Assembly: GCF_036370855.1 (NCBI RefSeq) | Contig: NC_088135.1 | Location: 62,001-126,000, forward strand | Source of the DNA: Dromaius novaehollandiae | Lineage: Eukaryota | Reading direction: 5' to 3' | DNA: 64,000 bases | In this document: positions 22,865 through 60,459 of the stretch, one piece after another | Position numbering within the stretch: the first letter of the stretch is position 1 | Layout of the letters: each line of letters starts with the position of its first letter | The notes under the pieces: generated by a model | The model's input: only the letters and a program-made list of their open reading frames with translations | What the model was told of the DNA's origin: nothing | The model's database searches: none | Position numbers and translations under genes: made by a program

Positions 22865-25800
22865 GTACGGACCAGTTTGGACCAGTATAAACCAGTATGG
22901 ACCAGTATAAACCAGTATAGACCAGTATAGAGCAGTTTAGACCAGTATAGACCAGTATAGACCAGTATAAACCAGTATAGACCAGTATAGACCAATATGG
23001 GTTGGGGCTCCCTCCCACTGTCCTCCCCAGGCCCCCCAGTGCCCTCCCAGTGCCTCCCAGTATGTCCCAGTGGCTCCCAGTAGCCCCCCCAATATGTCCC
23101 AGTGGGCCTCCAGTGCCGTCCCAGTATGTCCCAGTGTTGTCCAGTACTTCCCAGTATCTCCCAAGGCCGTCCCAGCATCACCCAGTGCCTCCCAGTATCT
23201 CCCAGTCCCCTCCCAGTAGCCCCTAGTGCCCTCCCAGTTCACCCAGTCCCCTCCCAGTGCCTCCCAGGGCCCCCCCAGCTCCCCCCTAGACCCTCCCCAG
23301 TGCCCCCCAGTGCCCCCCAAACCCCCCCCAGTGCCTCCCGGTCCCTTCCCAGTGCCCCCCAGTGCTTCGCAGTGCCTCCCAGTGCCCCCCAGTGCCCCCC
23401 AGACTCTCTCCAGTGCCCCCCAAACCCTCTCCAGTACCTCCCAGTGCCCCCCAGTGCCTCCCAGTGCCCCCCAAGTCCTCTCTAGACCCTCCCCAGTGCC
23501 CTCCCAGTGCCTCCCAGTGCCCCCCAAATCCCCTCTAGACCCTCCCCAGTGCCTCCCAGTGCCCTGCAAGCCCCCCTAGACCCTCCCCAGTGCCTCCCAG
23601 TGCCCTGCAACCCCCCCTAGACCCTCCCCAGTCCCTCCCAGTGCCCCCCAGTGCCTCCCAGTCCCCCCCCAGTGCCTCCCAGTGCCTCCCAGTGTCTCCC
23701 CAGTGCCTCCCAGTGCCTCCCAGTGCCTCCCAGTGCCCCCCAAATCCCCTCTAGACCCTCCCCAGTGCCTCCCAGTGCCCTGCAAGCCCCCCTAGACCCT
23801 CCCCAGTGCCTCCCAGTGCCCCCCAGTGCCTCCCAGTCCTCCCCCAGTGCCTCCCAGTGCCTCCCAGTGTCTCCCCAGTGCCTCCCAGTGCCCCCCAGTG
23901 CCTCCCAGTGCCCCCCAAGTCCTCTCTGGACCCTCCCCAGTGCCTCCCAGTGCCTCCCAGCACCCCCAAGTCCCCTCTAGACCCTCCCCAGTGCCTCCCA
24001 GTGCCCCCCAGTGCCTCCCAGTGCCCCCCATATCCCCTCTAGACCCTCCCCAGTGCCCACCTAGTCCCCCCCAGACCCTCCCCTGTCCCCCCCAGACCCT
24101 CCCCAGTGCCTCCCAGTGCCCCCCAGTGCCTCCCAGTGCCCCCCAAATCCCCTCTAGACCCTTCCAAGTGCCCCCCAGTGCCTCCCAGTGCCCCCCAGTG
24201 CCTCCCAGTGCCCCCCAAGTCCCCTCTAGACCCTCCCCAGTGCCTCCCAGTCCCCCACAGTGCCTCCCAGTGCCTCCCAGTGCCCCCCAGTGACGCCGGC
24301 TCCCCCCCCCACGCAGGAGGGCGCCCCCCGAAGGCCCCGCGGGGCGACGGGGGGGAGGCGGCGCCCTACGAGGACCCCCCCGACCGGCTGACGTCACCGG
24401 GGGGGCAGCGCTTCACCCTCAAGGTGACGTCGTGGAACGTCGACGGCCTCCGCGCCTGGGTGCGCAAGCAGGGCCTGCAGGTGAGCAGGGGCCCAGGCGT
24501 CCGGGAGAGGGGCCCAGGCGTCCGGGAGAGGGGCCCAGGCGTCCGGGAGGGGCCCAGGTGTCCAGGAGAGGGGCTCAGGTGGGCAGGGAGGGGCCCAGGC
24601 GTCCGGGAAAAGGGCCCAGGCGTCCGGGGAGGGCCCAGGCGTCCGGGAGGGGCCCAGGAGTCCGGGGAGGGGCCCAGGCGTCCGGGGAGGGGCCCAGGTG
24701 TCCAGGAAGGGGCCCAGGTGGGCAGGGAGGGGCCCAGGCGTCTGAGTAAAGGGCCCAGGCGTCCGGGTGAGGGTCCAGGCGTCAGGGAAAAGGGCCCAGG
24801 CGTCCAGGAAGGGCCCAGGAGTCTGGGAAAAGGGCCCAGGCATCCGGGAAGGGGCCCAGGCGTCCGGGAGAGGGGCCCAGGCGTCCGGGTGAGGGCCCAG
24901 GCGTCCGGGGAGGGGCCCAGGCATCCAGGAGGGGCCCAGGCGTCCGGGAAAGGGGCCCAGGCGTCCGGGAGAGGGGCCCAGGCGTCCAGGTGAGGGGCCC
25001 AGGTGTCCGGGAGGGGCCCAGGCGTCCAGGAAAGGGCCCAGGCATCCGGGAAAGGGGCCCGGGTGTCCGGGGACGGGCCCAGGCGTCCGGGAGAGGAGCC
25101 CAGGTGTCCGGGGAAGGGCCCAGGCGTCCGGGAGAGGGGCCCAGGCGTCCGGGGAGGGGCCCAGGCGTCCTGGAAGGGTCCCAGGCGTCCTGCCACCCCC
25201 CCCCCGTGTCCCCCCCCCGGCAGTGGGTGCAGGAGGAGGCCCCGGACGTGCTGTGCCTGCAGGAGACCAAGTGCGCGGGGGGGGCGGTGCCCCCGGAGGT
25301 GCGGGCCCTGCCCGGCCTCCCCCACCAGTTCTGGGCCAGCGCCGAGGGCAAGGCCGGCTACAGCGGCGTGGGGCTGCTGGCCCGCCACGAGCCCCTCAGC
25401 GTCACCTACGGCATCGGTGAGTCCCCCCCCGGCCCCCAAAATGCTCCTTTCTGCCCCAAACCGGCGTCGTGCTGCCCCAAAATACTCTTTTGTTACTCCA
25501 AAATACTCTTTTTCTGCTCAAAAACGCTCTTTTCTATCCCAAAATGGCATCGTTGTACCCCAAAACACTCTTTTGTTACTCCAAAATACTCATTTTCTAC
25601 TCAAAAAGGCTTTTTTCTACCCCAAAATGGTGTCGTCGTACCCCAAAATACTCTTTTGTTACTCCAAAATGCTCGTTTCCTGCTCGAAAACGTTCTTTTC
25701 TGTCCCAAAATGGCGGCATCATACCCCAAAAACTCTTTTTTGTTACTCCAAAATACTCTTTTGTTACTCCAAAATACTCTTATCCCGCTCGAAAACGCTC

Positions 25801-28800
25801 TTTTCTGTTCTAAAATGGCGTCGCTGTACCCCAAAATACTCTTGTTACTCCAAAATACTCATTTGTTGCTCCAAAATACTCTTTCCCCGTTCGAAAACGT
25901 TCTTTTCTGTCCCAAAATGGCGTCGTAGTACCCCGAAACTCTCATTTGTTACTCCAAAATACTCATTTTCTACCCAAAAAGGCTCTTTTGTACCCTAAAC
26001 TGGGCTTGTGCTACCCCAAAATGCTCATTTGTTACTCTAAAATACTCTTCCTACTCAAAAACGCTCTTTTCTATCCCAAAATGGTGTCGTACTACCCCAA
26101 AATACTCATTTGTTGCTGCAAAATACTCTTCCCACTTGAAAATGCTCTTTTCTGTCCCAAAATGGCATGGGGCTGCTGGCCCGCCACGAGCCCCTCAGCG
26201 TCACCTACGGCATCGGTGAGTCCCCCCCCGGCCCCCAAAGTGCTCCTTTCTGCCCCAAACCGGCGTCGTGCTGCCCCAAAATACTCCTTTGTTACTCCAA
26301 AATACTCTTTTCCCGCTCGAAAACGCTCTTTTCTATCCCAAAATGGCATCGTTGTACCCCAAAACACTCTTTTGTTACTCCAAAATACTCTTTTCCCGCT
26401 CGAAAATGATCATTTCTATCCCAAAATGGTGGCATCGTACCCCAAAATACTCTTTTGTTACTCCAGAATACTTTTTTCCCGCTCGAAAACGCTCTTTTCT
26501 ATCCCAAAATGGCGTCGTTGTACCCTAAAATACTTTTGTTACTCCAAAATACTCATTTCCTACTCAAAAAGGCTGTTTTCTACCCCAAAATGGTGTCGTC
26601 GTACCCCAAAATACTCTTTTGTTACTCCAAAATACTCTTTTCCCGCTCGAAAAAGTTTTTTTCTGTCCCAAAATGGCGCCATCATACCCCAAAAACTCTT
26701 TTTTCTTACTCCAAAATACTCGTTTGTTACTCCAAAATACTCTTATCCCGCTCGAAAACACTCTTTTCTGTCCTAAAATGGCGTCGCTGTACCCCAAAAT
26801 ACTCTTGTTACTCCAAAATACTCATTTGTTGCTCCAAAATACTGTTTTCCCGCTCGAAAACGCTCTTTTCTATCGCAAAATGGTGTCATCGTACCCCAAA
26901 ATACTCTTTTGTTACTCCAAAATACTTTTTCCCGCTCGAAAACGCTCTTTTCTATCCCAAAATGGCGTCGTTGTACCCCGAAACTCTCATTTGTTACTCC
27001 AAAATACTCATTTTCTACCCAAAAAGGCTCTTTTCTACCCTAAACTGGGCTTGTGCTACCCCAAAATGCTCATTTGTTACTCTAAAATACTCTTCCTACT
27101 CAAAAACGCTCTTTTCTATCCCAAAATGGTGTCGTACTACCCCAAAATACTCATTTGTTGCTGCAAAATACTCTTCCCACTTGAAAATGCTCTTTTCTGT
27201 CCCAAAATGGCATGGGGCTGCTGGCCCGCCACGAGCCCCTCAGCGTCACCTACGGCATCGGTGAGTCCCCCCCCGGCCCCCAAAGTGCTCCTTTCTGCCC
27301 CAAACCGGCGTCGTGCTGCCCCAAAATACTCTTTTCCCGCTCGAAAATGCTCTTTTCTATTCTAAAATGGCGTTGTTGCACCCTAAAATACTGTTGTTAC
27401 TCCAAAATACTCTATTGTTGCTCCAAAATATTCTTTTCCCACTGAAAAATGCTCTTTTCTATCCCAAAATGGTGTCGTCCTACCCTAAAATACTCTTTTG
27501 TTACTGCAAAATTCTTATTTCCTACTCCAAAAGACTCTTTTCTACCCCAAAATGGTGTCATCGTACCCCAAAATACTCCTTTGTTACTCCAAAATATTCT
27601 TTTCCTGGTCGAAAATGCTCTTTTTTGTCCCAAAATGGCATCGTCGTACCCCAAAAACCTCTTTTGTTACTCTGAAATACTCATTTGTTACTACAAAATA
27701 CTCTTTCCCGCTCAAAAATGCTCTTTTCTATCCCAAAATGGCATCGTCATACCACAAAACTCTCATTTGTTACTCCGGAATACTCATTTGTTACTCCAAA
27801 ATACTCTTTCCCACTTGAAAATGCTCTTTTCTATCCCAAAATGGCATCATAGTACCCCAAAATATTTGCTACTCCAAAATACTCATTTGTTACTCCAAAA
27901 TACTCTCTTCCCGCTCGAAAATGCTCTTTTCTATCCCAAAATGGCGTTGTTGTACCACAAAACTCTCATTTGTTACTCCAAAATACTCATTTGTTACTCC
28001 AAAATACTCTTTTCCCGCTTGAAAATGCTCTATTTTATTCCCAAATGGTGTCATAGTACCCCAAAATACGCATTTGTTATCCCAAAATACGCATTTGTTA
28101 CTCAAAAATGCTCTTTTTTACCCCAGACTGGGCTCCTGCTACCCCAAAGTACTCTTTTGTTACTCCAAAATACTCTTTTCTCGCTCGAAAACGCTCTTTT
28201 CTATCCCAAAACGGCGTTGTGGTACCCCAAAATACTCATTTGTTACTCCAAAGTACTCATTTGTTACCCCAAAGTACTCTTTTGTTACTCCAAAATACTC
28301 TTCCCACTCGAAAACGCTCTTTTCTATCCCAAAATAGCATTGTGGTACCCCAAAATACTTATTTGTTACTCCAAAATACTCATTTGTTACTCCAAAGTAC
28401 TCTTTTCCCGCTCAAAAATGCTCTTTTCTGTCCCAAAATGGCGTGATAGTACCCCAAAATACTCGTTTGTTACTCCAAAATATTAATATTCTACTCTAAA
28501 ATGCTCTTTTCTACCCCAAGCTGGCCTCTTGCTGCCCCAAAACACTCCCTTGTTGCCCCAAAATACCCATTTGCCACCCTGAAATACTCTTTTTTGCCCC
28601 AAACTGGCCTCGTAGTACCCTGAAGAACTCATTTGTTACTCAAAAATACTCATTTCCTACCCTAAAATGCTCTTTTCTGTCCCAAACTGGGCTCGTGCTG
28701 CCCTGAAATACTCATTTTGTCCCTCTTCTGCCCCCGTTCCGTCCATCTGCTCCTCTTTCATCCATCTCCTGTTCCATCCATCTCCTGTTCCATCCATCTT

Positions 28801-30264
28801 GTCTTATTCCATCTATTTTTTGCTCCCATTTGCTCCATCTTTCTCCATTCCATCCATCTTCTTCTGTTCCATCTTCTCCTCCTGCTCCATCCATCTCCTC
28901 CCGCTCCATCCATCTCCTCCTCCTGGTTCCCTCCATCTTCTCCTGCTCCATCCATCCATCTTCTCCTGTTTCGTCCATCTTTTCCTGTTTCGTCCATCTT
29001 CTCCCATTTCATCCATCTTCTGTTTTTCTATCCATCTTCTCCCGTTTCATCCATCTCCTCCTGTTCCATCCATTTTGTCCTGCTCCATCCATCCATCTTG
29101 TCCTGCTGCATCCATCCATCTTGTCCCACTCCATCCATCTTGTTCTGCTCCATCCATCCATCTCCTCCTCCATCCATCCATCCATCTCCTCCTCCATCCA
29201 TCCATCTCCTGCTCCATCCATCCATCTCCTCCTCCATCCATCCATCTCCTGCTCCATCTATCCATCTTGTCCTCCTCCATCCATCCATCTTCTGCTGCTC
29301 CATCCATCCATCTCCTGCTCCATCCGTCCATCTCCTCCTGCTCCATCCATCCATCTCCTCCTCCATCCATCCATCTTGTTCTCCTCCATCCATCCATCTT
29401 CTGCTGCTCCATCCATCCATCTCCTCCCGTTCCATCTTCTCCTCCATCTCCTGCTCCATCCATCCATCTCCTTCTCCATCCATCCATCTTGTTCTCCTCC
29501 ATCCATCCATGTCCTTCTCCATCCATCCATCTTGTCCTCTTCCATCCATCCATCTCCTCCTGTTCCATCCGTCTTCTCCCGTTCCATCCATCTTCTCCCG
29601 TTCCATCCATCTCCTCCTCCATCTCCTGCTCCATCCATCCATCTCCTCCTCCATCCACCCCTCCCTTCCCGTCCCCCCCATCACCATTTCCCCCCGTTTC
29701 CCCCCCGTTTTTCACCGTTTCCCCCCCGTTTCCCCCCACAAAACCGCAGGCGACGAGGAGCACGACCGCGAGGGCCGCGTCCTCACCGCCGAGTTCCCCG
29801 CCCTCTTCGTGGTGGCCGCCTACGTCCCCAACGCCGGCCGCGGCTTGGCCCGCCTGGGCCGCCGTACCCGCTGGGACGCCGCCTTCCGCGCCTTCCTCGC
29901 CCGCCTCGACGCCCGCAAGCCCGTGGCCCTCGCCGGCGACCTCAACGTGGCCCACGGCCCCCTCGACCTCCGCCACCCCCGCGCCAACCGCCGGGCGCCC
30001 GGCTTCACCGACGAGGAGCGCGGGGCCTTCACCGCCCTCCTGGACGCCGGCTTCATCGACTCCTTCCGCCACCTTTACCCCGCCGTGCCCCACGCCTACA
30101 CCTTCTGGACCTACTTGGGGGGCGCCCGGGCCCGCAACGTGGGCTGGCGCCTCGACTACTTCGTCCTCTCCCGGCGGCTCCAAGGGGCCCTTTGCGACAG
30201 CAAGATCCGCTCCAAGGTCATGGGCAGCGACCACTGCCCCATCACGCTCTACCTGGCCCTATAG
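22798..30264 (+). CDS. APEX1: APEX1 (APE1/Ref-1, AP endonuclease 1), complete CDS in 4 coding exons, 312 aa
   Basis: Exon lengths 67+164+193+515 = 939 nt, in frame. The translation is collinear with human APEX1: ...[38 protein letters not shown]|[17 protein letters not shown]...[20 protein letters not shown]|[15 protein letters not shown]...[12 protein letters not shown]...[12 protein letters not shown]. Confidence 0.9.
24317..24480 (+). CDS. APEX1: APEX1 coding exon 2: (G)[54 protein letters not shown]
   Basis: Acceptor cccacgcag|GA, donor CAG|gtgagc, 164 nt. Confidence 0.85.
25224..25416 (+). CDS. APEX1: APEX1 coding exon 3: [64 protein letters not shown](G)
   Basis: Acceptor ccccccccggcag|TGG, donor ATC G|gtgagt, 193 nt. 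Confidence 0.85.
25420..28700. repeat. AT-richer 30-40 bp satellite (CCAAAATACTCTTTTGTTACTCCAAAATACTC...) in APEX1 intron 3, containing two extra copies of the exon-3 3' end plus donor
   Basis: The fragments tggggctgctggcccgccacgagcccctcagcgtcacctacggcatcggtgagtcccccccc at about 26166-26222 and 27213-27270 duplicate 25367-25423. Confidence 0.9.
28700..29700. repeat. CCATCCATCT(CCTC) satellite in APEX1 intron 3
   Basis: ccatccatctcctcctgctccatccatccatct... Confidence 0.85.
29750..30264 (+). CDS. APEX1: APEX1 coding exon 4 (terminal): (G)[32 protein letters not shown]...[12 protein letters not shown]
   Basis: Acceptor aaaaccgcag|GC, TAG at 30262-30264, 515 nt. Confidence 0.9.
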
Positions 30265-31700
30265 CTGCCCTATAGCCCTCTAAGCCTGGTTTATATGGGG
30301 CTGGGGTCTTCCATGTTGGGTTGTGATGGTCCCATCACACTCTACCTGGCCCTATAGCTGCCCTATAGCCCCCTAAGCCTGGTCTGTATGGGGCTGGGGT
30401 CTTCTCCGTTGGGTCATGATGGTCCCATCAAGCTCTGCTTGGCCCTATAGCTGCCCTATAGCCCTCTAAGCGTGGTCTGTATGGGGCCATCGTGGTCCTT
30501 CTGGGGTCGTGATGGTCCTATCATGCTCTACCTGGCCCTATAGCTGCCCTATAGCCCCCTAAACCTGGTCTATATGGGGCTGGGGTCTTCTCCGTTGGGT
30601 TGTGATGGTCCCATCACGCTCTACCTGGCCCTATAGCTGCCCTATAGCCCCCTAAACCTGGTCTATATGGGGCTGAGGTCTTCCATGTTGGGTTGTGATG
30701 GTCCCATCACGCTCTACCTGGCCCTATAGCTGCCCTATAGCCCCCTAAGCTTGGTCTATATGGGGCTGAGGTCTTCTCCGTTGGGTTGTGATGGTCCCAT
30801 CATGCTCTACCTGGCCCTGTAGCTGCCCTATAGCCCCCTAAGCTTGGTCTATATGGGGCTGAGGTCTTCCATGTTGGGTTGTGATGGTCCCATCACGCTC
30901 TACCTGGCCCTATAGCTGCCCTATAGCCCCCTAAGCGTGGTCTGTATGGGGCCATCGTGGTCCTTCTGGGGTCGTGATGGTCCTATCATGCTCTGCTTGG
31001 CCCTATAGCTGCCCTATAGCCCCCTAAACCTGGTCTATATGGGGCTGGGGTCTTCTCCGTTGGGTCATGATGGTCCCATCACGCTCTGCTTGGCCCTATA
31101 GCTGCCCTATAGCCCCCTAAACCTGGTCTATATGGGGCTGAGGTCTTCTCCGTTGGGTTGTGATGGTCCCATCACGCTCTACCTGGCCCTATAGCTGCCC
31201 TATAGCCCCCTAAACCTGGTCTATATGGGGCTGGGGTCTTCTCCGTTGGGTCGTGATGGTCTCATCAAGTTCTGCTTGGTCTTATAGCTGCCCTATAGCC
31301 CTCTAAGCTTGGTCTATATGGGGTTGAGGTCTTCTATGTTGGGTTGTGATGGTCCCATCATGCTCTACCTGGCCCTATAGCTGCCCTATAGTCCCCTAAA
31401 CCTGGTCTATATGGGGCTGGGGTCTTCTCCGTTGGGTCATGATGGTCCCATCAAGCTCTGCTTGGCCCTATAGCTGCCCTATAGCCCTCTAAGCGTGGTC
31501 TGTATGGGGCTGAGGTCTTCTCCGTTGGGTTGTGGTGGTCCCATCATGCCCTACTTGGCCCTATAGCTGCCCTATAGCCCCCTAAACCTGGTCTATATGG
31601 GGCTGAGGTCTTCTCCGTTGGGTTGTGATGGTCCCATCACGCTCTACCTGGCCCTATAGCTGCCCTATAGCCCCCTAAATCTGGTCTGTACGGGGCCATC
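30265..31700. repeat. Approximately 93-105 bp tandem repeat of about 16 copies, each retaining the last 8 codons plus stop of APEX1 (CCCATCACGCTCTACCTGGCCCTATAG)
   Basis: The first copy is the genuine APEX1 3' end at 30238-30264. ...gtgatggtcccatcacgctctacctggccctatagctgccctatagcc... then recurs at about 30334, 30424, 30527 and so on up to about 31650. Confidence 0.9.
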
Positions 31701-43755: not shown

Positions 43756-43766
43756 ATGGAGGGAAG
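43756..43766 (+). CDS. PNP: Proposed PNP exon 1 coding part: M E G + AG. Kozak context gaaccATGG, donor AG|gtgcgg
   Basis: No in-frame ATG lies upstream of exon 2, which begins in phase 2. This 11-nt start supplies the AG for a Ser codon and makes the whole CDS a multiple of 3. Human PNP begins MENGYTYEDY; here it would begin MEGSYEAC. The implied intron 1 is about 4.4 kb. Confidence 0.35.
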
Positions 43767-46700: not shown

Positions 46701-49700
46701 GGGTCCCACCATGGGCCCTAGCTCCACTTATGGGTCCCGCCATGGGCCCTGGGTCCATCCATGGGTCCCGCCATGGGTCTTAGGTCCATCTACGGGTCCC
46801 ACCATGGGTCCTAGTTCCACTTATGGGTCCCACCATGGGTCCTGGGTCCACTTACGGGTCCCGCTATGGGTTCTAGCTCCACTTATGGGTCCCGCCATGG
46901 GTCCTGGGTCCATCCATGGGTCCCACCATGGGTCCTAGCTCCACTTATGGGTCCCGCCATGGGTCCTGGGTCCATCTGTGGGTCTCACCATGGGTCCTAG
47001 CTGCACTTATGGGTCGTGTTATGGGTCCTAGCTCCACTTATGGGTCCCGCCATGGGTCCTGGGTCCATCTATGGGTCCTGGGTCCATCCATGGGTCTTAC
47101 TATGGGTCCTGGGTCCACTTATGGGTCACACCATGGGTCCTGGGTCCACTTATGGGTCCCGCTATGGGTCCTGGGTCCACTTATGGGTCCCGCCATGGGT
47201 CCTGGGTCCATCCATGGGTCCCACCATGGGTCCTAGCTCCACTTATGGGTCCCACTATGGGTCCTAGCTCCACTTATGGGTCCCACTGTGGGTCCTAGCT
47301 CCACTTATGGGTCACGCTATGGGTCCTGGGTCCATCCATGGGTCCCGCCATGGGTCCTAGCTCCACTTATGGGTCCCGCCATGGGTCCTGGCTCCACTTA
47401 TGGGTCCCGCCATGGGTCCTAGCTCCACTTATGGGTCCCGCCATGGGCCCTAGCTCCACTTATGGGTCCCGCCATGGGTCGTAGCTCCACTTATGGGTCC
47501 CGCTATGGGTCCTGGGTCCACTTATGGGTCCCGCCATGGGTCCTGGGTCCATCCATGGGTCCCACCATGGGTCCTGGGTCCATCCATGGGTCCCGCCATG
47601 GGTCCTAGCTCCACTTATGGGTCCCGCCATGGGTCCTGGGTCCACTTATGGGTCCCGCCATGGGCCCTGGGTCCATCCATGGGTCCCACCATGGGTCCTG
47701 GCTCCACTTATGGGTCCTGCTATGGGTCCTGGGTCCATCTATGGGTCTCACCATGGGTCCTAGCTCCACTTATGGGTCCCGCTATGGGCCCTAGCTCCAC
47801 TTATGGGTCCCGCCATGGGTCATAGGTTCATCTACGGGTCCCACCATGGGTCCTGGGTCCACTTATGGGTCCTGCCATGGGTCCTGGGTCCATCTATGGG
47901 TCCCGCTATGGGTCCTAGCTCCACTTATGGGTCCCGCCATGGGCCCTAGGCCTCCCCACCCAACCCCACGCCCCCCCCACCGCCCCGTCCCACCACCGCC
48001 GCCGCCCCCCGCCGCCCCCCCGCCCCCCCTTCCCGCCCCCCCCACGGCCCCACGGCCCCCTAGACCCCATAACACGTCTCCGTGGGGCCGGGGGTCTCAC
48101 GGGGGGTCTTTTTTTGGGGGTCTTTTTTTTGGGGGGGGGCAGCTACGAGGCCTGCGCGGCGGCGGCGGCCTGGGTGGCCGAGCGGGCTGGGGGGCCGCCC
48201 CCCACTTTGGGCCTGGTCTGCGGCTCCGGCCTGGGGGCCTTGGCCGAGGGGCTGAGCCGGCCCCAGAGCTTCGACTACGCCGAGCTGCCCCACTTCCCCC
48301 GCAGCACCGGTGAGCGGGGACTGGGAGGGACTGGGAGGGGCTGGGAGGCTGCTGGGGGGCAACTGGGAGCGGCTGGGGGGTGATTGGGGGTGACTGGGAG
48401 GTGCTGGGGGGTGATTGGGAAAGACTGGGAGGTGCTGGGGGGCAACTGGGAGCGACTGGGAGGTGCTGGGGAGCGACTGGGAGGTGCTGGGGGGAGACTG
48501 GGAGCGACTGGGGGGTGATTGGGAGCAACTGGGAGGTGTTGGGGGGTGATTGGGGGTGACTGGGAGTGACTGGGGGGCAACTGGGAGTGACTGGGAGGTG
48601 CTGGGGGGCAACTGGGAGCGACTGGGGGGTGATTGGGAGTGACTGGGAGGTGCTGGGGGGCAACTGGGAGCAACTGGGGGGCGATTGGGAGCGACTGGGA
48701 GGTGCTAGGGGGTAATTGGGAGCGACTGGGAGGTGCTAGGGGGTAACTGGGAGCGACTGGAGGGTGATTGGGAGCAACTGGGAGTGACTGGGGGGTGATT
48801 GGGAGTGACTGGGAGGTGCTGGGGGGTGACTGGGAGCGACTGGGGGGTGATTGGGGGTGACTGGGAGTGACTGGGGGGCGATTGGGGGTGACTGGGAGGC
48901 GCTCGGGGGCGACTGGGAGGTGCTGGGAGGCTGCTGGGGGGCAACTGGGAGCGGCTGGGGGGTGATTGGGGGTGACTGGGAGGTGCTCGGGGGCGACTGG
49001 GAGTGACTGGGAGGTGCTTGGGGGCGACTGGGAGCGACTGGGGGGCCGTTGGGAGCAACTGGGAGGTGCTGGGGAGCGACTGGGAGGTGCTGGGGGGTAA
49101 CTGGGGCGACTGGGGGGTGATTGGGAGTGACTGGGGGGTGATTGGGAGTGACTGGGAGGTGCTGGGGGGCGACTGGGAGTGACTGGGAGGTGCTGGGGGG
49201 CAACTGGGAGCGACTGGGGGGCGATTGGGAGCGACTGGGAGGTGCTGGGGGGAGACTGGGAGCGACTGGGGGGTGATTGGGAGCAACTGGGAGCGACTGG
49301 GGGGTGATTGGGGGTGACTGGGAGGTGCTGGGGGGGGATTGGGAGCAACTGGGAGGTGCTGGGGGGCAACTGGGAGGTGCTGGGGGGCAATTGGGAGTGA
49401 CTGGGAGGTGCTCGGGGGCAACTGGGAGCAACTGGGAGGTGCTGGGGGGCAACTGGGAGGTGATTGGGAGCGACTGGGAGGTGCTGGGGGGCAACTGGGA
49501 GCAGCTGGGGGGTGATTGGGGGTGACTGGGAGTGACTGGGGGGCGACTGGGAGCGACTGGGAGGTGCTGGGGGGCAACTGGGAGCGACTGGGGGCTGATT
49601 GGGAGCAACTGGGAGGTGCTGGGGGGCGATTGGGAGCAACTGAGAGTGACTGGAGGGTGATTGGGAGCAACTGGGACGTGCTGGGGGGTGACTGGGAGTG

Positions 49701-52700
49701 ACTGGGGGGTGATTGGGAGTGACTGGGAGGTGCTCGGGGGCGACTGGGAGTGACTGGGGGGCATTTGGGAGCAACTGGGAGGTGCTGGGGAGCGACTGGG
49801 AGGTGCTGGGGGGTAACTGGGAGTGACTGGGAGGTGCTGGGGGGCAACTGGGAGTGACTGGGAGGTGCTGGGGGGCAACTGGGAGCAACTGGGGGGCGAT
49901 TGGGAGCAACTGGGAGGTGCTGGGGAGCGACTGGGAGGTGCTGGGGGGCAACTGGGAGCGACTGGGGGGTGATTGGGAGCAACTGGGAGGTGCTGGGGGG
50001 TGATTGGGGGTGACTGGGAGGTGCTGGGGGGTGATTGGGAGCGACTGGGAGGTGCTGGGGGGCGACTGGGAGCAACTGGGAGGTGCTGGGGGGTGATTGG
50101 GAGCAACTGGGAGGTGCTGGGGGGCGACTGGGAGCAACTGGGAGGTGCTGGGGGGTGATTGGGAGCAACTGGGAGGTGCTGGGGGGTGATTGGGAAAGAC
50201 TGGGAGGTGCTGGGGGTGATTGGGAGCAACTGGGAGTGACTGGGAGGTGCTGGGGAGCGATTGGGAGTGACTGGGAGGTCCTGGCGGGTGATTGGGAGCG
50301 ACTGGGAGTGACTGGAGGGGGATTGGTAGTGACTGGGAGGTGCTGGGGGGTAACTGGGAGCAACTGGTGGCAACCGGGAGGTCCTCGGGGGTCCTGGGGG
50401 GTAACTGGGAGGTCCAGGGGGGTAACTGGGTGGACTGAGGGGGCAACTGGGAGCAACTGGGTGCAACTGGGAGGCCCTGGGGGGCAACTGGGAGCAATTG
50501 GGAGGTCCTGGGGGGCCACTGGGAGGTCCTGGATGACAACTGGGGGCAACTGGGAGCAACTGGGGGGCAACTGGGAGCAACTGGGGGCCACTGGGAGGTC
50601 TTGGGGGGCAACTGGGGGCCTTAGGGGGCAACTGGGAGCAACTGGGTGGCCCTGGGGGGTCCTAGGGGCAACTGGGGAGCAACTGGGAGCAACTGGGTGG
50701 CCCTGGGGGGTCCTAGGGGCAACTGGGGGGCAACTGGGAGCAACTGGGTGGCCCTGGGGGGTCCTAGGGGCAACTGGGGGGCAACTGGGGAGCAACTGGG
50801 TGGCCCTGGGGGGTCCTAGGGGCAACTGGGGGGCAACTGGGAGCAACTGGGCGGCCCTGGGGGTCCTAGGGGCAACTGGGGGGCAACTGGGAGCAACTGG
50901 GAGGCCCTGGGGGGTCCTAGGGGCAACTGGGGGGCAATTGGGAGCAACTGGGCGGCCCTGGGGGGTCCTAGGGGCAACTGGGGGGCAACTGGGAGCAACT
51001 GGGTGGCCCTGGGGGCAACTGGGGGGCAACTGGGAGCAACTGGGCAGGCCTGGGGGGTCCTAGGGGCAACTGGGGGGCAACTGGGAGCAACTGGGCGGCC
51101 CTGGGGGTCCTAGGGGCAACTGGGGGGCAACTGGGAGCAACTGGGAGGCCCTGGGGGGTCCTAGGGGCAACTGGGGGGCAATTGGGAGCAACTGGGCGGC
51201 CCTGGGGGGTCCTAGGGGCAACTGGGGGGCAACTGGGAGCAACTGGGTGGCCCTGGGGGCAACTGGGGGGCAACTGGGAGCAACTGGGCAGCCCTGGGGG
51301 GTCCTAGGGGCAACTGGGGGGCAACTGGGAGCAACTGGGCGGCCCTGGGGGCAACTGGGGGGCAACTGGGAGCAACTGGGCGGCCCTGGGGGGGCCTAGG
51401 GGCAACTGGGGGGCAACTGGGAGGCAACTGGGAGCAACTGGGCGGCCCTGGGGGGTCCTAGGGGCAACTGGGGGGCAATTGGGAGCAACTGGGCGGCCCT
51501 GGGGGGTCCTGGGGGCAACTGGGAGCAACTGGGAGCAACTGGGCAGCCCTGGGGGGTCCTAGGGGCAACTGGGGGGAACTGGGGGGCAACTGGGAGCAAC
51601 TGGGGGGTCCTAGGGGCAACTGGGGGGCAACTGGGGGGCAACTGGGAGCACCTGGGAGGCCCTGGGGGGTCCTAGGGGCAACTGGGAGCAACTGGGTGGC
51701 CCTGGGGGGTCCTAGGGGCAACTGGGGGGCAACTGGGAGCAACTGGGCGGCCCTGGGGGGTCCTAGGGGCAACTGGGGGGCAACTGGGAGGCAACTGGGA
51801 GCAACTGGGGGGTCCTAGGGGCAACTGGGGGGCAACTGGGGGGCAACTGGGAGCAACTGGGTGGCCCTGGGGGGTTCTAGGGGCAACTGGGGGGCAACTG
51901 GGAGCAACTGGGCGGCCCTGGGGGGTCCTAGGGGCAACTGGGGGGCAACTGGGAGCAACTGGGAGGCCTCAGAGGGGAGCTGAAACATGGCGCTGGGTGC
52001 TGCTAGCACACGCGTGACCTTAGCGTGTGCTTAGCGTGTGCGGGGTGCTAGTGGCACAGAGGGGGAGCGGCCGCACACGCGTGGCCTTAGCGTGTGCTTA
52101 GCGTGTGCGGCGGCTCCTCCCGCGCTGGGGGGGGCCGCTGTGACATCAGCACACGCGTGTGCTTAGCGTGTGCGGGATGCTAGGGGCACAAAGCGGGGGG
52201 GGAGGCGGCACACGCGTGGGCTTAGCGTGTGCTTGGCGTGTGCGGCGGGCCCGGGACGGGCTGGGGGGGCGGCGGGGGGGCTGGGGGGGGGGGTGGGGGC
52301 GCACGCGTGACCTTGGCGTGTGCTTGGCGTGTGCAGTGCCGGGCCACGCGGGGCGGCTGGTGCTGGGCTGGTTGGGCGGCTGCCGCTGCGCCGTGCTGCA
52401 GGGCCGCTTCCACCTCTACGAGGGCTACAGCCCCGCCCAGGTGCGCCCGGACGCCGGGGCCCCTTTCTGGGACGCCTGGGCCCCTTCCTGGGATGCCTGG
52501 GCCCTTTTCCCGGACACCTGGGCCCCTTTCCCGGACGCCTGGGCCCTCTCCCGGACGCCTGGGCCCCTCTCCCGGACGCCTGGGCCCTCTCCCGGACGCC
52601 TGGGCCCCTCTCCCGGACGCCTGTTCCCCTCTCCCGGACGCCTGGGCCCCTCATCCCGGACGCCGGGGCCCCTTTCCCGGACACCTGGGCCCTTTCCCGG

Positions 52701-55700
52701 ATGCCTGGGCCCTTTCCCGGACACCTGGGCCCCTTCCTGGGACGCCTGGGCCCCTTTCCCGGACGCCTGGGCCCTCCCGGACGCCTGGGCCCCTTCCCTC
52801 GATTCCTGCCCCCTTTCCCAGACGCCTGTTCCCCTCTCCCAGACGCCTGGGCCCTTTCCCGGACGCCTGGGCCCCTTCCCTCGATTCCTGCCCCCTCTCC
52901 CGGACGCCTGGGCCCTTTTCCCGGACGCCTGGGCCCCTTCCCTTGATTCCTGCCCCCTCTCCCGGACGCCTGGGCCCCTTTCCCGGACACCTGGGCCCCT
53001 CCCGGACGCCTGGGCCCCTTCCCTCGATTCCTGCTCCCTCTCCCGGACGCCTGGGCCCCTCCCCGGACGCCTGTTCCCCTCTCCCGGACGCCTGGGCCCT
53101 TCCCTGGACGCCTGGGCCCCTTCCCTCGATTCCTGCCCCCTCTCCCAGACGCCTGGGCCCCTCTCCCGGACGCCTGGGCCCCTTCCCTCGATTCCTGTTC
53201 CCTCTCCCGGACGCCTGGGCCCCTCCCGGACGCCTGGGCCCCTTCCCTCGATTCCTGCCCCCTCTCCCGGACGCCTGGGCCCTCCCGGACGCCTGGGCCC
53301 CTCTCCCCGACACCTGGGCCCCTTTCCCGGACACCTGGGCCCCTTCCCTCGATTCCTGCTCCCTCTCCCGGACGCCTGGGCCCCTCTCCCGGACGCCTGT
53401 TCCCCTCCCGGACGCCTGTTCCCTTTCCCGGACGCCTGGGCCCCTTCCCTGGACGCCTGTTCCCCTCCCGGACGCCTGTTCCCTTTCCCGGACGCCTGGG
53501 CCCCTTCCCGGACGCCTGGGCCCCTTCCCTCAATTCCTGCCCCCTTTCCCGGACGCCTGGGCCCCTCCCCGGACACCTGGGCCCCTCCCGGATGCCTGGG
53601 CCCTTCCCCGGACACCTGGGCCCCTTCCCTCGATTCATGCCCCCTCTCCCAGACGCCTGGGCCCCTTCCCCGGACGCCTGGGCCCCTCCCTGGACACCTG
53701 GGCCCCTCTCCCGGACGCCTGGGCCCCTTCCTTCAATTTCTTTTCCCTTTCCCGGACGCCTGTTCCCCTCCCGGACGCCTGGGCCCCTCCCCGGACGCCT
53801 GTTCCCCTCCCGGACGCCTGGGCCCTCCCGGACGCCTGGGCCCTTTCCCGGACGCCTGGGCCCCTCCCGGACGCCTGGGCCCCCCTCCCTTCCCCGCGCA
53901 GGTGGCGATGCCCGTGCGGACGCTGCGGCTCCTGGGCGCCCGGACGCTGCTGCTGACCAACGCTGCCGGCAGCCTCCGGCCCGACCTGACGCCCGGCGAC
54001 TTGCTGGTGCTGCGCGACCACCTCGACCTGCCCGGCCTGGCCGGACGCAGCCCCCTGGCCGGCCCCAACGACGAGCGGTGCGTGAGCCGGGGGCCCAGGC
54101 GTCCGGGAGGGGGGAACAGGCGTCCGGGAGGGGGGAACAGGCGTCCGGGAAAGGGACCTAGGTGGTTGGGAAGGGGCCCAGGCGTCCAGGAAAGGGGCCC
54201 AGGCGTCCGGGAGGGGAACAGGCGTCCGGGAGGGGAACAGGAATCAAGGGAAGGGGCCCAGGTGTCTGGGAAAGGGCCCAGGTGTCCGGGGAGGGGCCCA
54301 GGCGTCCGGGAAAGGGGCCCAGGTGTCCGGGAAAGAGGGGCCCAGGCGTCCGGGAGAGGGCCCAGGCGTCCGGGAAAAGGGCCCAGGTGTCCAGGAAAGG
54401 GAACAGGTGTCCGGGGAGGGCCCAGGCGTCCGGGAAAGGACCCAGGCGTCCGGGGAAGGGGCCCAGGCGTCCGGGAGGGGCCCAGGCGTCCGGGAGGGGC
54501 CCAGGCGTCCGGGAAAAGGGGCCCAGGCGTCCGGGAAAAGGGCCCAGGCGTCCGGGAGGGGAACAGGAATCAAGGAAAGGGGCCCAGGCGTCCGGGAGGA
54601 GGGCCCAGGCGTCCGGGGAGGGGAACAGGCGACCGGGGAGGGGAACAGGCGTCCGGGAGGGGGGAACAGGCGACCGGAACGAGGGGCCCAGGCGTCCGGG
54701 AGAGGGGAACAGGCGTCCGGGAAAAGGGGCCCAGGCGTCCGGGAGAGGAGCCCAGGCGTCCGGGAGAGGGAACAGGCATCCGGGAAAAGGGCCCAGGCGT
54801 CCGGGGAGGGACCTAGGTGGTTGGGAAGGGGCCCAGGCGTCCGGGAGAGGGCCCAGGCGTCCGGGAGGGGAACAGGAATCAAGGGAAGGGGCCCAGGCGT
54901 CCGGGAAAGGGGCCCAGGCGTCCGGGAGAGGGGAACAGGCGTCCGGGAAAGGGGCCCAGGCATCCGGGAAGGGGCCCAGGCATCCGGGAAAAGGGGCCCA
55001 GGCGTCCGGGAAAAGGGCCCAGGCGTCTGGGAGGGGAACAGGAATCAAGGAAAGGGGCCCAGGCGTCCGGGAAAGGGCCCAGGCGTCCGGGGAAGGGGCC
55101 CAGGTGTCCGGGAAAGGGGCCCAGGCGTCCGGGAAAGGGAACAGGCGTCCGGGAAAGGACCCAGGCGTCCGGGAAAGGAGCCCAGGCGTCCGGGAGGGGC
55201 CCAGGCGTCCGGGAAAGGGGCCCAGGCGTCCGGGAGAGGGAACAGGCATCCGGGAAAAGGGCCCAGGCGTCCGGGGAGGGACCTAGGTGGTTGGGAAGGG
55301 GCCCAGGCGTCCGGGAGAGGGCCCAGGCGTCCGGGAGGGGAACAGGAATCAAGGGAAGGGGCCCAGGCGTCCGGGAAGGGGCCCAGGCGTCCGGGAAGGG
55401 GCCCAGGCGTCCGGGAAAGGACCCAGGCGTCCGGGAAAGGAGCCCAGGCGTCCGGGAGGGGCCCAGGCGTCCGGGAAAGGGGCCCAGGCGTCCAGGTGAA
55501 GGGCCCAGGTGTCCGGGAAAGGGGCCCAGGCATCCGGGAGAGGGAACAGGCGTCCAGGAAAAGGGCCCAGGCGTCCGGGAGGGGCCCAGGCGTCCGGGGA
55601 GGGGCCCAGGCGTCCGGGGAGGGGCCCAGGCGTCCGGGAAAAGGGCCCAGGCGTCCAGGAAAGGGGCCCAGGCGTCCGGGGAAAGGGCCCAGGCGTCCAG

Positions 55701-58700
55701 GACAAGGGCCCAGGCGTCCGGGTAAAGAGCCCAGGCGTTCCAGAAAAGGGCCCAGGCGTCCGGGAGAGGGACCTAGGTGGTTGGGAAGGGGCCCAGGCGT
55801 CCGGGAAAGGGACCCAGGCGTCCGGGAGAGGAGCCCAGGCGTCCCGTGACCCCCGTGTCCCCCCCGCCCAGGTTCGGGCCCCGCTTCCCGGCGGTGGCGG
55901 GCGCCTACGACGCGTCGCTGCGGGCCCTGGCGCTGCGGCTGGCGGCCCGGGTGGCCCCCGAGCTCCGGGCCCGGCCCGGCGTCTACTGCGGCGTCGGCGG
56001 CCCCGGCTACGAGACGGCCGCCGAGGGCCGCTTCCTGCGCCGCGCCGGCGCCGACGCCGTCGGTGAGCCCTAATTACCGAGCAGTTCCCCTAATTAGCTT
56101 GCAATTAGCTCTCTGCACCGTTGCAATTAATGTGCATGCTCGTAAGCTTGCAGTGATCTCGTTGCACCATTGCAATTAGCGTGCACGCTCGTTAACTTGC
56201 AATGACCCTGTTGCACCATTGCAATTAGCGTGCACGCTCGTTAGCTTGCAATGATCTCGTTGCACCATTGCAATTATCGTGCACGCTTGTTAGCTTGCAA
56301 TGACGTCATTGCAGCATTGCAATTAGCGTGCACGCTCGTTAGCTTGCAATTAGCTCTTTGCACCATTGCAATTAATGTGCATGCTAATTAGCTTGTAATG
56401 ACCCTGTTGCACCATTGCAATTAGCGTGCATGCTCGTTAGCTTGCAATGATCTCGTTGCACCATTGCAATTAGCGTGCACGCTCGTTAGCTTGCAATGAT
56501 CTCGTTGCACCATTGCAATTAGCGTGCACGCTCGTTAGCTTGCAATTACCCTGTTGCACCATTGCAATTACTCATTTGCACCATTGCAATTAGCGTGCAT
56601 GCTCGTTACCTTGCAATTAGTTCATTGCACCATTGCAATTAATGTGCATGCTCATTAGCTTGCAATCGCCCTGTTGCACCATTGCAATTAGCCCTTTGCA
56701 CCATTGCAATTAGCGTGCACGCTCATGAGCTTGCAATTAGCTCATTGCACTATTGCAATTAGCGTGCACGCTCATTAGCTTGCAATTATCTCATTGCACC
56801 ATTGCAATTAATGTGCATGCTAATTAGCTTGCAATCACGCCGTTGCACCATTGCAATTAGTGTGCACGCTCATTAGCTTGCAGATAGCTCATTGCACCAT
56901 TGCAATTAATGTGCATGCTAATTAGCTTGCAATGACCTCATTGCAGCATTGCAATTAGCGTGCATGCTAATTAGCTTGCAATGATGCCTCTGCACCATTG
57001 CAATTAGCGTTCTAATTAGCATGTAATTAGCACATGGAGGGCTTGCAATTAGCATGCAGTTAGCATGTAATTACCCCAAGCAGCACCTAGCGAGCGCATA
57101 ATTAGGAGATAATTAGCATGCGATCTGCATCTAATTAGCATACGCTGAACCTGCAAGAAGTCTTTAATTAGGAGATGATGCTAATTAGGGTTGATGAGTT
57201 AGCGTGTAATTAGCGTGTTGTTAGCGTGTAGGGCAGCAGGAAGCTCTTGGCTAATTAGGATGTGGCTCTGCTTAAAATTAGCAAGTAATTAGCATGTAAT
57301 TAGCATGTAATCAGTGCATAATTGGCATGTGGTTAGTGTGTAATTAGCATGTAATTAGCATGTAGTTAGCATATAATTAAGTTATGGTGAGTGTGCAATT
57401 AGCATGTAGTTAGTATGTAATTAAGCTATAGCTAGCGTGTAATTAGCATGCGATTAGCATGTGATTAACATGCAATTAGTGTGTGATTAGCATCTAATTA
57501 GCATATAATTAAGAGCTTAGCGTGTAATGAGCGTGCACGCAGGCCGTAATTAGCCCGCGGCCTGTGACGAGCGTGGCCTTGGCGTGTGCTTAGCGTGTGC
57601 TAGGGCTCTGCGTGCTGCTGGCGTGCGATTTGCATGTGATTTGCGTGTGATTTGCATGTGATTTGCATGTGATTTGCATGCTCTTTGCTTGCACTTTGCA
57701 CCCCCCTTGCACCCTCCTTGCACCCACTTAGCACCGTCCTTGCACCCTTGATGCAGCCAGTTAGCACCCTCGTTGCACACTCATTGCACCCACTTAGCAC
57801 TGAGTTAGCACCCCCCTTGCACCCCCCTTGCACCCCCCTTGCCCCCTCCTTGCACCCTCGTTGCACCCTCCTTGCACCCTCGTTGCACGCTCCTTGCATG
57901 CTCCTTGCACCCACTTAGCACCCACTTAGCACCTGCCTTGCACCCTTGATGCAGCCACTTAGCACTCTCGTTGCACCCACTTAGCACCCACTTAGCACCC
58001 ACTTAGCACCCACTTAGCACCCACTTAGCACCCCCCTTGCACCCTCGTTGCACCCTCTTTGCACCCACTTAGCACCCCCCTTGCACCCTCCTTGCACCCT
58101 CCTTGCACCCTCCTTGCACCCTTGATGCACCCACTTAGCACCCTCGTTGCACCCACTCAGCACCCACTCAGCACCCCCCTCGCACACTCATTGCACCCTC
58201 CTTGTACACTCATTGCACCCACTCAGCACCCACTCAGCACCCACTTTGCACCCACTCAGCACCCACTTAGCAGCCACTTTGCACCCCCCTTGCACGCTCC
58301 TTGCACCCACTCAGCACCCACTCAGCACCCTCCTTGCACACTCCTTGCACCCACTTAGCACCCACTTAGCACCCCCTTGCACACTCATTGCACCCCCTCA
58401 GCACCCACTCAGCACCCCCTCAGCACCCACTTAGCACCCCCCTTGTACCCCCCCCTTGCACACTCATTGCACCCCCTCAGCACCCCCTCAGCACCCCCTC
58501 ACCCCCCCCTTTGCCCCCCCCCGGCACCCACGCTCCCACCCGCCCCCCCCAGGCATGAGCACGGTGCACCCACTCAGCACCCCCCTCGCACCCCCCCAGC
58601 ACCCCCTCAGCACCCCCTCAGCCCCCCCCCCTTTGCCCCCCCCCGGCACCCACGCCCCCGCCCGCCCCCCCAGGCATGAGCACGGTGCACCCACTCAGCA

Positions 58701-60459
58701 CCCACTCAGCACCCACTCAGCACCCACTTAGCACCCACTCAGCTCCCACTTAGCACCCACTCAGCTCCCACTTAGCAGCCCCCTCGCACACTCATTGCAC
58801 CCCCCTTGCACCCACTCAGCACCCACTCAGCACCCCCTCGTTGCACCCCCCTTGCACCCCCCTTGCACCCTCCTTGCACCCTCCTTGCACCCCCCTTGCA
58901 CCCTCCTTGCACCCTCCTTGCACCCCCCTTGCACACCCCTTGCATCCTCCTTGCACACTCGTTGCACCCACTTAGCACCCCCCTTGCACCCCCCTTGCAC
59001 CCCCCTTGCACCCACTTAGCACCCACTTAGCACCCACTTTGCACCCCCTCAGCACCCCCTCAGCACCCCCTCACCCCCCCTTCAGCACCCCCTCAGCACC
59101 CCCTCAGCACCCCCTCAGCACCCACTTAGCACCCCCCTCGCCCCCCTCCGCACACCCCCGCCCCCGCCCGCCCCCCAGGCATGAGCATGGTGCACCCACT
59201 CAGCACCCACTTAGCACCCCCCTTGCACCCCCCTTGCACCCCCCTTGCACACTCATTGCACCCCCATTGCACCCCCCTTGCACCCCCTTGCACCCACTCA
59301 GCACCCACTTAGCACCCACTTAGCACCCTCCTTGCACCCTTGATGCAGCCACTTAGCACTCTCGTTGCACCCACTTAGCACCCTCCTTGCACCCCCCTTG
59401 CACCCCCCTTGCACCCCCCTCGCACCCCCCTCGCACCCTCGTTGCACCCTCGTTGCACCCTCATTGCACCCCCTTGCACCCCCTCAGCACCCACTTAGCA
59501 CCCCCCTTGCACCCCCCTTGCACCCTCATTGCACCCACCTTGCACCCCCCCTCACCCCCCCCTTTGCCCCCCCCCGGCACCCATGCCCCCGCCCGCCCCC
59601 CAGGCATGAGCATGGTGCACCCACTCAGCACCCACTCAGCACCCACTTAGCACCCACTCAGCACCCCCTTGCACCCCCCTTGTACCCCCTCCTTGCACCC
59701 TCCTTGCACCCTCCTTGCACCCACTTTGCACCCACTCAGCACCCCCTTAGCACCCCTTCTTTGCACCCCCCTTGCACCCCCCTCAGCACCCCCTCAGCAC
59801 CCCCTTGCACCCCCCCTCAGCCCCCCCTCGCCCCCCCCAGCACCCACTTTGCACCCCCTCGTTGCACCCCCCTTGCACCCCCATTGCACCCCCCCAGCAC
59901 CCATTGAGCACCCCCTCAGCACCCCCCTTGCACCCCCCCCTTGCACCCCCCTTGCACCCTCCTTGCACCCTCCTTGCACCCACTTAGCACCCACTTTGCA
60001 CCCCCCTTGTACCCCCCCTTGCACCCCCCTTGCACCCACTCAGCACCCCCTCAGCACCCCCTCAGCACCCTCCTTGCACCCCCCTTGCACCCTCCTTGCA
60101 CCCACGCCCCCCCGCCCCCCCCAGGCATGAGCACGGTGCACGAGGCGGTGGCCGGGCGCCACTGCGGCCTGCGGCTCCTGGGGCTCTCGCTCATCACCAA
60201 CATGGCCGCCGGCGCCACCCACGACGGTGACGATGACGACGGTGACGACGGTCACGACGGGGACGACGACGGGGGCCACGACGCGGTGCTGGCGGCCGCC
60301 CGACGCGCCGTCACCCCGCTGCGGGCCCTGCGCGACGCCCTGGCCCGGCACCTGGCCCGCGAGGAGGAGGAGGAGGAGGCCGAAGGCCGCCGTGACGGTG
60401 ACGACGGTGACGGTGACGATGGCGACGAGGAGGAAGGGCGGCGCCGAGAGGCCGCCTGA
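43756..60459 (+). CDS. PNP: PNP (purine nucleoside phosphorylase), complete CDS in 6 exons, 327 aa
   Basis: MEG|[56 protein letters not shown]|[35 protein letters not shown]|[59 protein letters not shown]|[13 protein letters not shown]...[22 protein letters not shown]|[25 protein letters not shown]... This is collinear with human PNP. Exon lengths 11+167+104+176+191+335 = 984 nt, in frame. Confidence 0.85.
45040..47940. repeat. About 31 bp satellite (ATGGGTCC CGCCATGGGTCCTGGGTCCATCT...), 2.9 kb, in the proposed PNP intron 1
   Basis: Highly regular tatgggtcccgccatgggtcctgggtccatccatgggtcccaccatggg; every unit carries a CCATGG (NcoI site, ATG in Kozak-like context). Confidence 0.95.
48143..48309 (+). 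CDS. PNP: PNP exon 2: (S)[55 protein letters not shown](V)
   Basis: Acceptor ggggggggcag|C TAC, donor ACC G|gtgagcg, 167 nt. Confidence 0.8.
48310..51960. repeat. ACTGGGAG(C/G)(G/A) / GGTGCTGGGGGG satellite (reverse-orientation member of the CTCCCAGTG family), 3.6 kb, PNP intron 2
   Basis: gggaggtgctggggggcaactgggagcgactgggg... Confidence 0.95.
52337..52440 (+). CDS. PNP: PNP exon 3: (V)[34 protein letters not shown]
   Basis: Acceptor gtgtgcag|TG, donor CAG|gtgcgc, 104 nt. Confidence 0.85.
53902..54077 (+). CDS. PNP: PNP exon 4: [58 protein letters not shown](R)
   Basis: Acceptor tccccgcgcag|GTG, donor GAG CG|gtgcgt, 176 nt. Confidence 0.85.
55872..56062 (+). CDS. PNP: PNP exon 5: (R)[63 protein letters not shown](G)
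   Basis: Acceptor cccgcccag|G TTC, donor GTC G|gtgagc, 191 nt. Confidence 0.85.
56070..57550. repeat. AT-rich TAATTA-containing tandem repeats (about 60 bp unit cattgcaattagcgtgcacgctcgttagcttgcaatga; then gcatgtaattagc units) in PNP intron 5
   Basis: More than 60 TAATTA/AATTAG cores; base composition differs sharply from the flanks. Confidence 0.9.
57600..57690. repeat. Five tandem copies of (G)TGATTTGCAT(G), the octamer motif ATTTGCAT
   Basis: gcgtgcgatttgcatgtgatttgcgtgtgatttgcatgtgatttgcatgtgatttgcatgctc. Confidence 0.8.
57700..60120. repeat. 11 bp satellite CCCACT(T/C)AGCACC / CCCCCTTGCACC, with four embedded copies of the PNP exon-6 acceptor plus start (pyrimidine tract, CAG, GCATGAGCA(C/T)GGTGCAC)
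   Basis: The copies lie at about 58546, 58668, 59170 and 59591. The genuine acceptor is at 60113-60124. Confidence 0.9.
60125..60459 (+). CDS. PNP: PNP exon 6 (terminal): (G)[110 protein letters not shown]
   Basis: Acceptor ccccccccccag|GC ATG, TGA at 60457-60459. Contains Asp/Gly and poly-Glu coding repeats that are absent from human PNP. Confidence 0.85.

Follow-up and report, generated by a model that had tools for sequence, protein, structure and literature searches.

Four copies of the PNP exon-6 acceptor lie within an intronic 11-bp satellite of the emu

We analysed a 64,000-nt stretch of the emu genome (Dromaius novaehollandiae, RefSeq assembly GCF_036370855.1, contig NC_088135.1, positions 62,001 to 126,000 of the forward strand; hereafter the window), which carries the purine nucleoside phosphorylase gene PNP together with APEX1, and found that the boundary between intron 5 and exon 6 of PNP is present five times, once at the genuine splice acceptor and four more times, as copies that we call decoys, within the 11-bp satellite upstream of it. 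A sequence-only reading of this DNA had pointed to four such copies, and a motif search that could equally have returned a single one bore it out. The 17-mer GCATGAGCAYGGTGCAC, corresponding to the start of exon 6, has exactly five exact matches in the window, all on the + strand, at 58553, 58674, 59179 and 59604 and, as the start of the genuine exon, at 60125, with a chance expectation of 0.00 in dinucleotide-preserving shuffles. Allowing up to 3 mismatches added no further site in the window (0.26 expected) and hence the 17-mer is not a variant of the satellite; the shuffles and the 3-mismatch search together ruled out chance and satellite variation as sources of the copies. The positions originally assigned to the decoys (58546, 58668, 59170 and 59591) belong to real copies but mark the starts of their C-tracts and not the motif. 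Similarly, polypyrimidine tract, AG and exon start were indeed copied together, as had been proposed, but the exonic part amounts to 17 nt and not to about 24 nt.

A C-rich tract ending in CAG precedes each of the five sites, and all four decoys, like the genuine acceptor, lie on the + strand. Decoy 1 (58500-58569) consists of the C-tract, an AG at 58551-58552 and the 17 exonic nt GCATGAGCACGGTGCAC at 58553-58569, and decoy 2 (58622-58690) is built likewise, with its exonic part at 58674-58690. In decoy 3 (59129-59195; exonic part 59179-59195) an ACG has changed to ATG, that is, CpG to TpG, and decoy 4 (59552-59620; exonic part 59604-59620) has the same ACG to ATG change and, in its tract, CATG in place of CACG. 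Counted outward from the first base of the exon, the copied block takes in the AG and 27 nt or more of the tract upstream. Between -27 and +17 the five sites are nearly alike, with pyrimidines at 15-16 of the 18 positions from -20 to -3 and a G at +1, and the AG-free zones upstream of them measure 47-103 nt. Intron 5 contains 28 YAG sites with a comparable pyrimidine-rich tract, and a G at +1 is found in these five alone. A CTCAC branch-point-like motif is located roughly 50 nt upstream in decoys 1 (at -52) and 4 (at -50), while the real site is without it, and at all five sites the strand opposite the tract bears a canonical G-quadruplex (G4) motif.

The decoys share more with one another than with the sequence they were copied from. 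After GGTGCAC the exon continues with GAGGCGG, whereas the decoys read CCACTCAGC, so that all four have the same 3' junction, GGTGCAC followed by CCACTCAGCACCC; all four also have GCCCCCGCCCGCC in the tract, whereas the real site reads GCCCCCCCGCC there. In a 77-nt comparison, decoys 1, 2 and 4 match each other at 70-72 of 77 positions and the real site at 62-67 of 77, against a baseline of 57.8 +/- 5.4 for random satellite segments. Taken together, the shared junction, the shared GCCCCCGCCCGCC variant and the identities among decoys speak for one origin, after which the copies spread through the array. A tandem duplicate of about 120 bp (157 nt at 89.8% identity) contains decoys 1 and 2; in a self-BLAST it was the only block to stand out from a background of about 80-85% identity in any register. 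Successive sites are spaced by 121, 505, 425 and 521 bp. The ACG to ATG transition is common to decoys 3 and 4, and two further differences are CpG transitions as well. At the point of capture, GCAC at 60138-60141, within the exon-6 codons GTG CAC, provides microhomology: 4-5 nt, (T)GCAC, are common to these codons and to the satellite core.

The real exon 6 is intact. Both PNP and APEX1 were located on the + strand by tblastn, using human PNP and APEX1 sequences as queries, and PNP exons 2-6 could be reconstructed with canonical splice sites throughout; the spliced product is 100% identical over 323 aa to the NCBI entry "purine nucleoside phosphorylase [Dromaius novaehollandiae]". The NCBI annotation places the acceptor of emu PNP at 60125 and lists a single product. 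In our reconstruction the ATG of exon 1 is at 43756, exons 2-4 occupy 48143-48309, 52337-52440 and 53902-54077, and exon 5, supported by tblastn, its splice boundaries and the match to the annotation, spans 55872-56062, ending in ...GCCGACGCCGTCG before the donor gtgagc. Intron 5 (56063-60124) measures 4,062 nt, in agreement with the earlier estimate of about 4 kb, and consists of tandem repeats nearly throughout. The genuine acceptor GCACCCACGCCCCCCCGCCCCCCCCAG lies at 60098-60124, with its AG at 60123-60124, and exon 6, the last exon, extends from 60125 to the stop codon TGA at 60457-60459 (60125-60459).

Three arrays detected by Tandem Repeats Finder (TRF) make up most of intron 5. A 49-bp satellite, TTAGCTTGCAATGATCTCGTTGCACCATTGCAATTAGCGTGCACGCTCG, occupies its 5' end (56094-57010), followed by an AT-rich 11-bp array of AATTAGCATGT (57276-57511) and by the C-rich 11-bp satellite that harbours the decoys (57696-60103), with 217.7 copies and the in-register consensus GCACCC[C/A/T]C[T/C]T[T/A]. 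Its commonest units are GCACCCCCCTT, GCACCCACTTA, GCACCCACTCA and GCACCCTCCTT, it reaches to within 27 nt of exon 6, and a general repeat search of the array returned 11-bp register families only.

Comparison of orthologous introns, which the sequence-only reading had suggested, places the satellite before the capture. PNP intron 5 of the ostrich has the same layout: it opens with AT-rich elements resembling TAATTAGCATG, similar to the AT-rich array of the emu, and contains an 11-bp array (locus L004, 19788-21714) of 175 copies, whose in-register consensus GCACGCACTTT is close to the emu profile, so that the arrays of the two species agree in intron, orientation and period. In the ostrich, about 125 bp of unique sequence separate the array from the AG and GCATGAGCACGGTGCAC, and a search of its intron 5 for decoys found none. 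Since the ostrich has the array and lacks the decoys, the satellite predates the capture. A single copy of the acceptor and no decoys were found in eagle, cormorant, gull, cuckoo, crane and wagtail too.

The swan goose, by contrast, has three decoys of its own. Within its intron 5 (locus L001, 13287-15125) a 472-bp higher-order repeat, present 3.8 times, contains three extra copies of YAG followed by GCATGAGCA, with exon starts at 13665, 14139 and 14611 as against 15117 for the real one. What they have in common is at least 120 nt of intron on the upstream side but only 9-11 exonic nt, after which they diverge; because junction and repeat unit both differ from those of the emu, the same boundary was captured independently. 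The goose loci L001 and L002 are byte-identical and we count them as one observation. In goose, eagle, gull, cuckoo and crane, units related to the satellite, CTTAGCGTGTN, directly precede the acceptor of exon 6. The 11-bp family GCACAYGCTAA, whose complement is CTTAGCGTGTN, also recurs within the emu window at 19666-19705, 20661-20712 and 52006-52340, which suggests an old and widespread minisatellite family of dot chromosomes to which the intron-5 arrays of emu and ostrich are related.

Structures of this kind have recently been described in the chicken. Hron et al. (Genome Biol Evol 2026; PMC12954441; bioRxiv 10.1101/2025.09.16.676548) reported "sequence stuttering" in introns of the GC-rich, repeat-dense and gene-rich dot chromosomes of the chicken and, as a subset, "exon stuttering", in which a lateral part of an exon is copied together with its splice site through the adjacent intron while the exon itself remains intact. 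Their tally comprises 236 introns of 115 genes, in which exon segments 20-187 bp long recur in 1-44 copies (median 4) over a median span of 1,751 bp, and over 90% of the sources lie no farther than one base from an exon's border; wide variation of intron length within the species is a further hallmark. The structures were checked against raw nanopore reads, and replication stress, arising at GC-rich or G4 DNA, is named as a possible cause alongside meiotic gene conversion (PMC12954441). On every biological point of this definition that could be tested, the emu PNP case agrees with exon stuttering. Intron 5 holds four direct + strand copies of the initial 17 nt of exon 6, as many as the chicken median, and they extend over about 1.6 kb, near the 1,751 bp that is the median in the chicken; the source is found at the border of the exon, and the copied piece crosses that border and includes the splice site; source exon and coding sequence are intact; and the host intron consists mostly of tandem repeats within a GC-rich gene. 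What differs is the species, a palaeognath plus a goose instead of the chicken, the order of events, in that the comparative data indicate capture of the boundary by an older satellite and not seeding of the array by the exon, and the length of the exonic part, whose 17 nt fall below the published cut-offs of 20 nt and 42.1 bits in BLASTn, which are detection limits of that screen and not biological criteria. Our own exon-only blastn-short screen of the window (maximum of the shuffled control 38.2 bits) missed the PNP decoys and reported both APEX1 cases described below. A capture that lies under the limit of the published screen implies that the published counts are lower bounds.

Microhomology-mediated tandem duplication, a mutational class that comprises replication slippage, fork stalling and template switching or microhomology-mediated break-induced replication (FoSTeS/MMBIR) and unequal exchange in minisatellites, offers a second point of comparison. 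The emu copies resemble its products in being direct and tandem, in their 4-5 nt (T)GCAC junction and in the later change of copy number within the array; it denotes, though, a class of mutation without family members, and the mechanism is not visible in a single assembly.

The reading that we favour, and that we hold to be likely, is that the decoys represent exon stuttering as a non-adaptive by-product of tandem-repeat instability in a GC-rich region of dot-chromosome type. An old 11-bp minisatellite would have occupied PNP intron 5 across birds and, in the emu lineage, would have grown until 27 nt separated it from the acceptor of exon 6. A single out-of-register event, for which template switching, replication slippage and unequal exchange are candidates, may then have joined the GCAC of exon-6 codons 5-6 (GTG CAC) to the GCAC of an upstream satellite unit, duplicating the end of the intron and the first 17 exonic nt into the array. 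Later array turnover presumably multiplied the captured block to four copies, which now appear to be decaying, chiefly by CpG transitions. The G4 motif opposite all five tracts fits the replication-stress idea put forward for the chicken (PMC12954441).

Several points weigh against this scenario. Copy number is taken from one emu assembly, the mechanism is read from a junction of 4-5 nt alone, and GCAC is present in exon 6 of the ostrich too, yet without capture, which means that the microhomology permits a capture but does not suffice for it. With a background identity of about 80% within the satellite, larger duplicated blocks cannot be delimited with confidence. Neutrality is an assumption: all four AGs are intact, but this would be expected by chance at about 5% divergence.

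Alternatively, the decoys might be a functional array of acceptor mimics, kept because they compete with the real site and tune PNP through truncated mRNAs or slowed removal of the intron. Their near identity to the real site from -27 to +17, the CTCAC motif that decoys 1 and 4 have in addition, and the capture of the same boundary in both emu and goose could be read in this way. Decoy exons are reportedly conserved across species. In human genes, intron retention is known to be controlled by decoy splice sites (Parra et al. 2018, PMC6097662; Parra et al. 2020, PMC7373989). These too are intronic mimics that could engage the spliceosome and compete with genuine splice sites, but the published elements are cryptic exons that need their splice sites, whereas those of the emu are acceptor-only, lineage-specific and decaying. 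Conservation is lacking, as neither the ostrich nor six other birds have the decoys and those of the goose are independent and differently structured; CpG decay has reached the exon-like part of decoys 3 and 4; there is no paired donor that would define a decoy exon, and the single emu product at NCBI uses the real acceptor. Inspection by eye found no consensus donor after the emu decoys, the only GT being a weak ACG/GTGCAC inside the copied piece. We therefore consider a functional array very unlikely.

We also consider it very unlikely that the decoys are an assembly artefact, brought about or increased in number when long reads of a low-complexity, G4-prone satellite were wrongly assembled. 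Such regions are hard to sequence and PacBio coverage drops in them (10.1101/2025.10.17.683159), and support comes from one emu assembly and from two goose loci that, being byte-identical, are not independent. Against this, the four copies differ in substitutions, run lengths and satellite context, while duplicates made by an assembler would be expected to be identical, and similar structures were checked against raw nanopore reads in the chicken (PMC12954441). The explanation to which we give the least credence of all reverses the order of events, so that the whole 11-bp array would have grown from the exon-6 boundary (GCATGA GCACGGT GCAC). The start of the exon does contain GCA at spacings of 6 and 7 nt and ends in the satellite core GCAC, and in some chicken cases the sequences that expand seem to come from neighbouring exons (PMC12954441). 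The ostrich array, however, lies about 125 bp from the acceptor and is free of exon copies, CTTAGCGTGTN units adjoin the acceptor in goose, eagle, gull, cuckoo and crane, and the related 11-mers GCACATGCTAA, GCACACGCTAA and GCGTGTGCTTA occur elsewhere in the window; these arrays and 11-mers show the array to be older and more widespread than the capture.

The reading frames after decoys 1-4 stop after 59, 26, 44 and 15 codons, respectively, consistent with the earlier statement that the open reading frame ends soon after them, and judging from these frames the use of a decoy would yield a PNP truncated after exon 5 and extended by a tail of 15-59 residues rich in Pro, Ser, Thr and His. Transcripts with a stop codon in the last exon usually escape nonsense-mediated decay. 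As the stop would lie in the last exon, decoy-spliced mRNAs would probably escape it as well. A protein-database search with exons 4-5 joined to a decoy tail returned no decoy-spliced product, a negative of little weight, as the emu PNP entry itself was not among the matches either. The sole matches that continue past exon 5 belong to other birds: the annotated PNP of Geospiza parvula (P0047) and of Balearica regulorum (P0030) run past ...AVG into unrelated sequence. These products appear to be read-through from the exon-5 donor into intron 5, and this intron seems to be difficult for automated annotation in species other than the emu. Recursive splicing was considered and rejected by eye, given that GCATGA after the decoy AG would not rebuild a donor.

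The same pattern recurs in APEX1, where both cases named by the sequence-only reading proved to be real. The last 53 nt of an internal APEX1 exon (25369-25421, + strand) are found again at 26168-26220 and 27213-27265, within a downstream 83/104-bp satellite, and each copy carries, besides the 53 exonic nt at 100% identity, the GTGAGT donor and some 100 nt of intronic sequence. Together they make up an array of putative decoy donors and, at 100% identity, look much younger than the PNP decoys. At the 3' end of the gene, a 93-bp array of 15.7 units (30238-31696, + strand) starts inside the coding sequence: its first unit opens with the last 8 codons and the stop of APEX1 (PITLYLAL*; the last 27 nt of the coding sequence), and later units begin with copies of this segment, some of them degenerate, so that the end of the coding sequence is repeated through the 3' flank. 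The satellites of this locus incorporate exon-intron boundaries and thereby provide arrays of candidate cryptic acceptors, a structural reading that had been offered at the outset, that all tests made here upheld and that matches exon stuttering in the chicken (PMC12954441).

The genomic setting is GC-rich, with most 2-kb bins of the window at 65-79% GC, and the source contig carrying emu PNP is 987,576 bp long. OSGEP is a gene neighbouring APEX1 and PNP. The supplement of the chicken study includes OSGEP, on dot chromosome 34, among the genes with stuttering (PMC12954441). The main text of that study makes no mention of emu, PNP or APEX1, and PNP and APEX1 are absent from the searched part of its supplementary text; the emu is a new species and PNP and APEX1 are new genes for exon stuttering. 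Dot-chromosome introns of several birds, the emu included, are rich in non-B DNA motifs, and in those of the zebra finch minisatellites predominate whose unit lengths are multiples of 10-11 bp (10.1101/2025.10.17.683159).

Tandem repeats adjoin other exons of PNP as well. Intron 2 ends in 34 nt that contain the exon-3 acceptor and are the fifth copy of a repeat of about 67 bp, GCACACGCGTGRCCTTAGCGTGTGCTTAGCGTGTGCGG (52006-52336); in the four copies upstream, GCGG stands in place of the GCAG of the real acceptor. The acceptor may have arisen inside the repeat, or else the AG may have been lost from the upstream copies. Kilobase-size arrays of the 21-bp repeat GGGGCCCAGGCGTCCGGGAA flank exon 4 (53902-54077) on opposite strands (52447-53882, -; 54092-55847, +), and such inverted arrays could pair in the pre-mRNA and loop out the exon. 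The core of this repeat occurs 827 times in the window (515 on the + and 312 on the - strand), in blocks spread along its length, several of which adjoin exons of PNP and APEX1. Within exon 6, in-frame repeats of GAC/GGT type (60215-60290 and 60395-60440) encode acidic low-complexity inserts; at the first of these positions the ostrich has ALDYERPPAAGH and other birds carry acidic inserts of their own at the same loop, indicating that repeat expansion acts inside this exon too.

In conclusion, the emu window contains three cases of exon stuttering, one in PNP and two in APEX1, to which the same PNP boundary in the goose is added, while systematic documentation has so far been confined to the chicken. 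The emu and goose cases imply that the process acts in both Palaeognathae and Neognathae and that it can recur at one site. To the published picture they add an order of events in which the satellite came first, a defined microhomology junction and independent recurrence in two deep avian lineages, and they raise the practical question of how, out of five near-identical acceptors, the spliceosome comes to select the fifth. We think it unlikely that the PNP exon-6 acceptor, where an ancient 11-bp satellite and a G4-forming C-tract adjoin, is a recurrent capture hotspot and that some decoys are spliced in vivo to give stable mRNAs for truncated, inactive PNP. If this were true, however, repeat instability would directly erode the expression of dot-chromosome genes, with a possible link to the loss of genes there.

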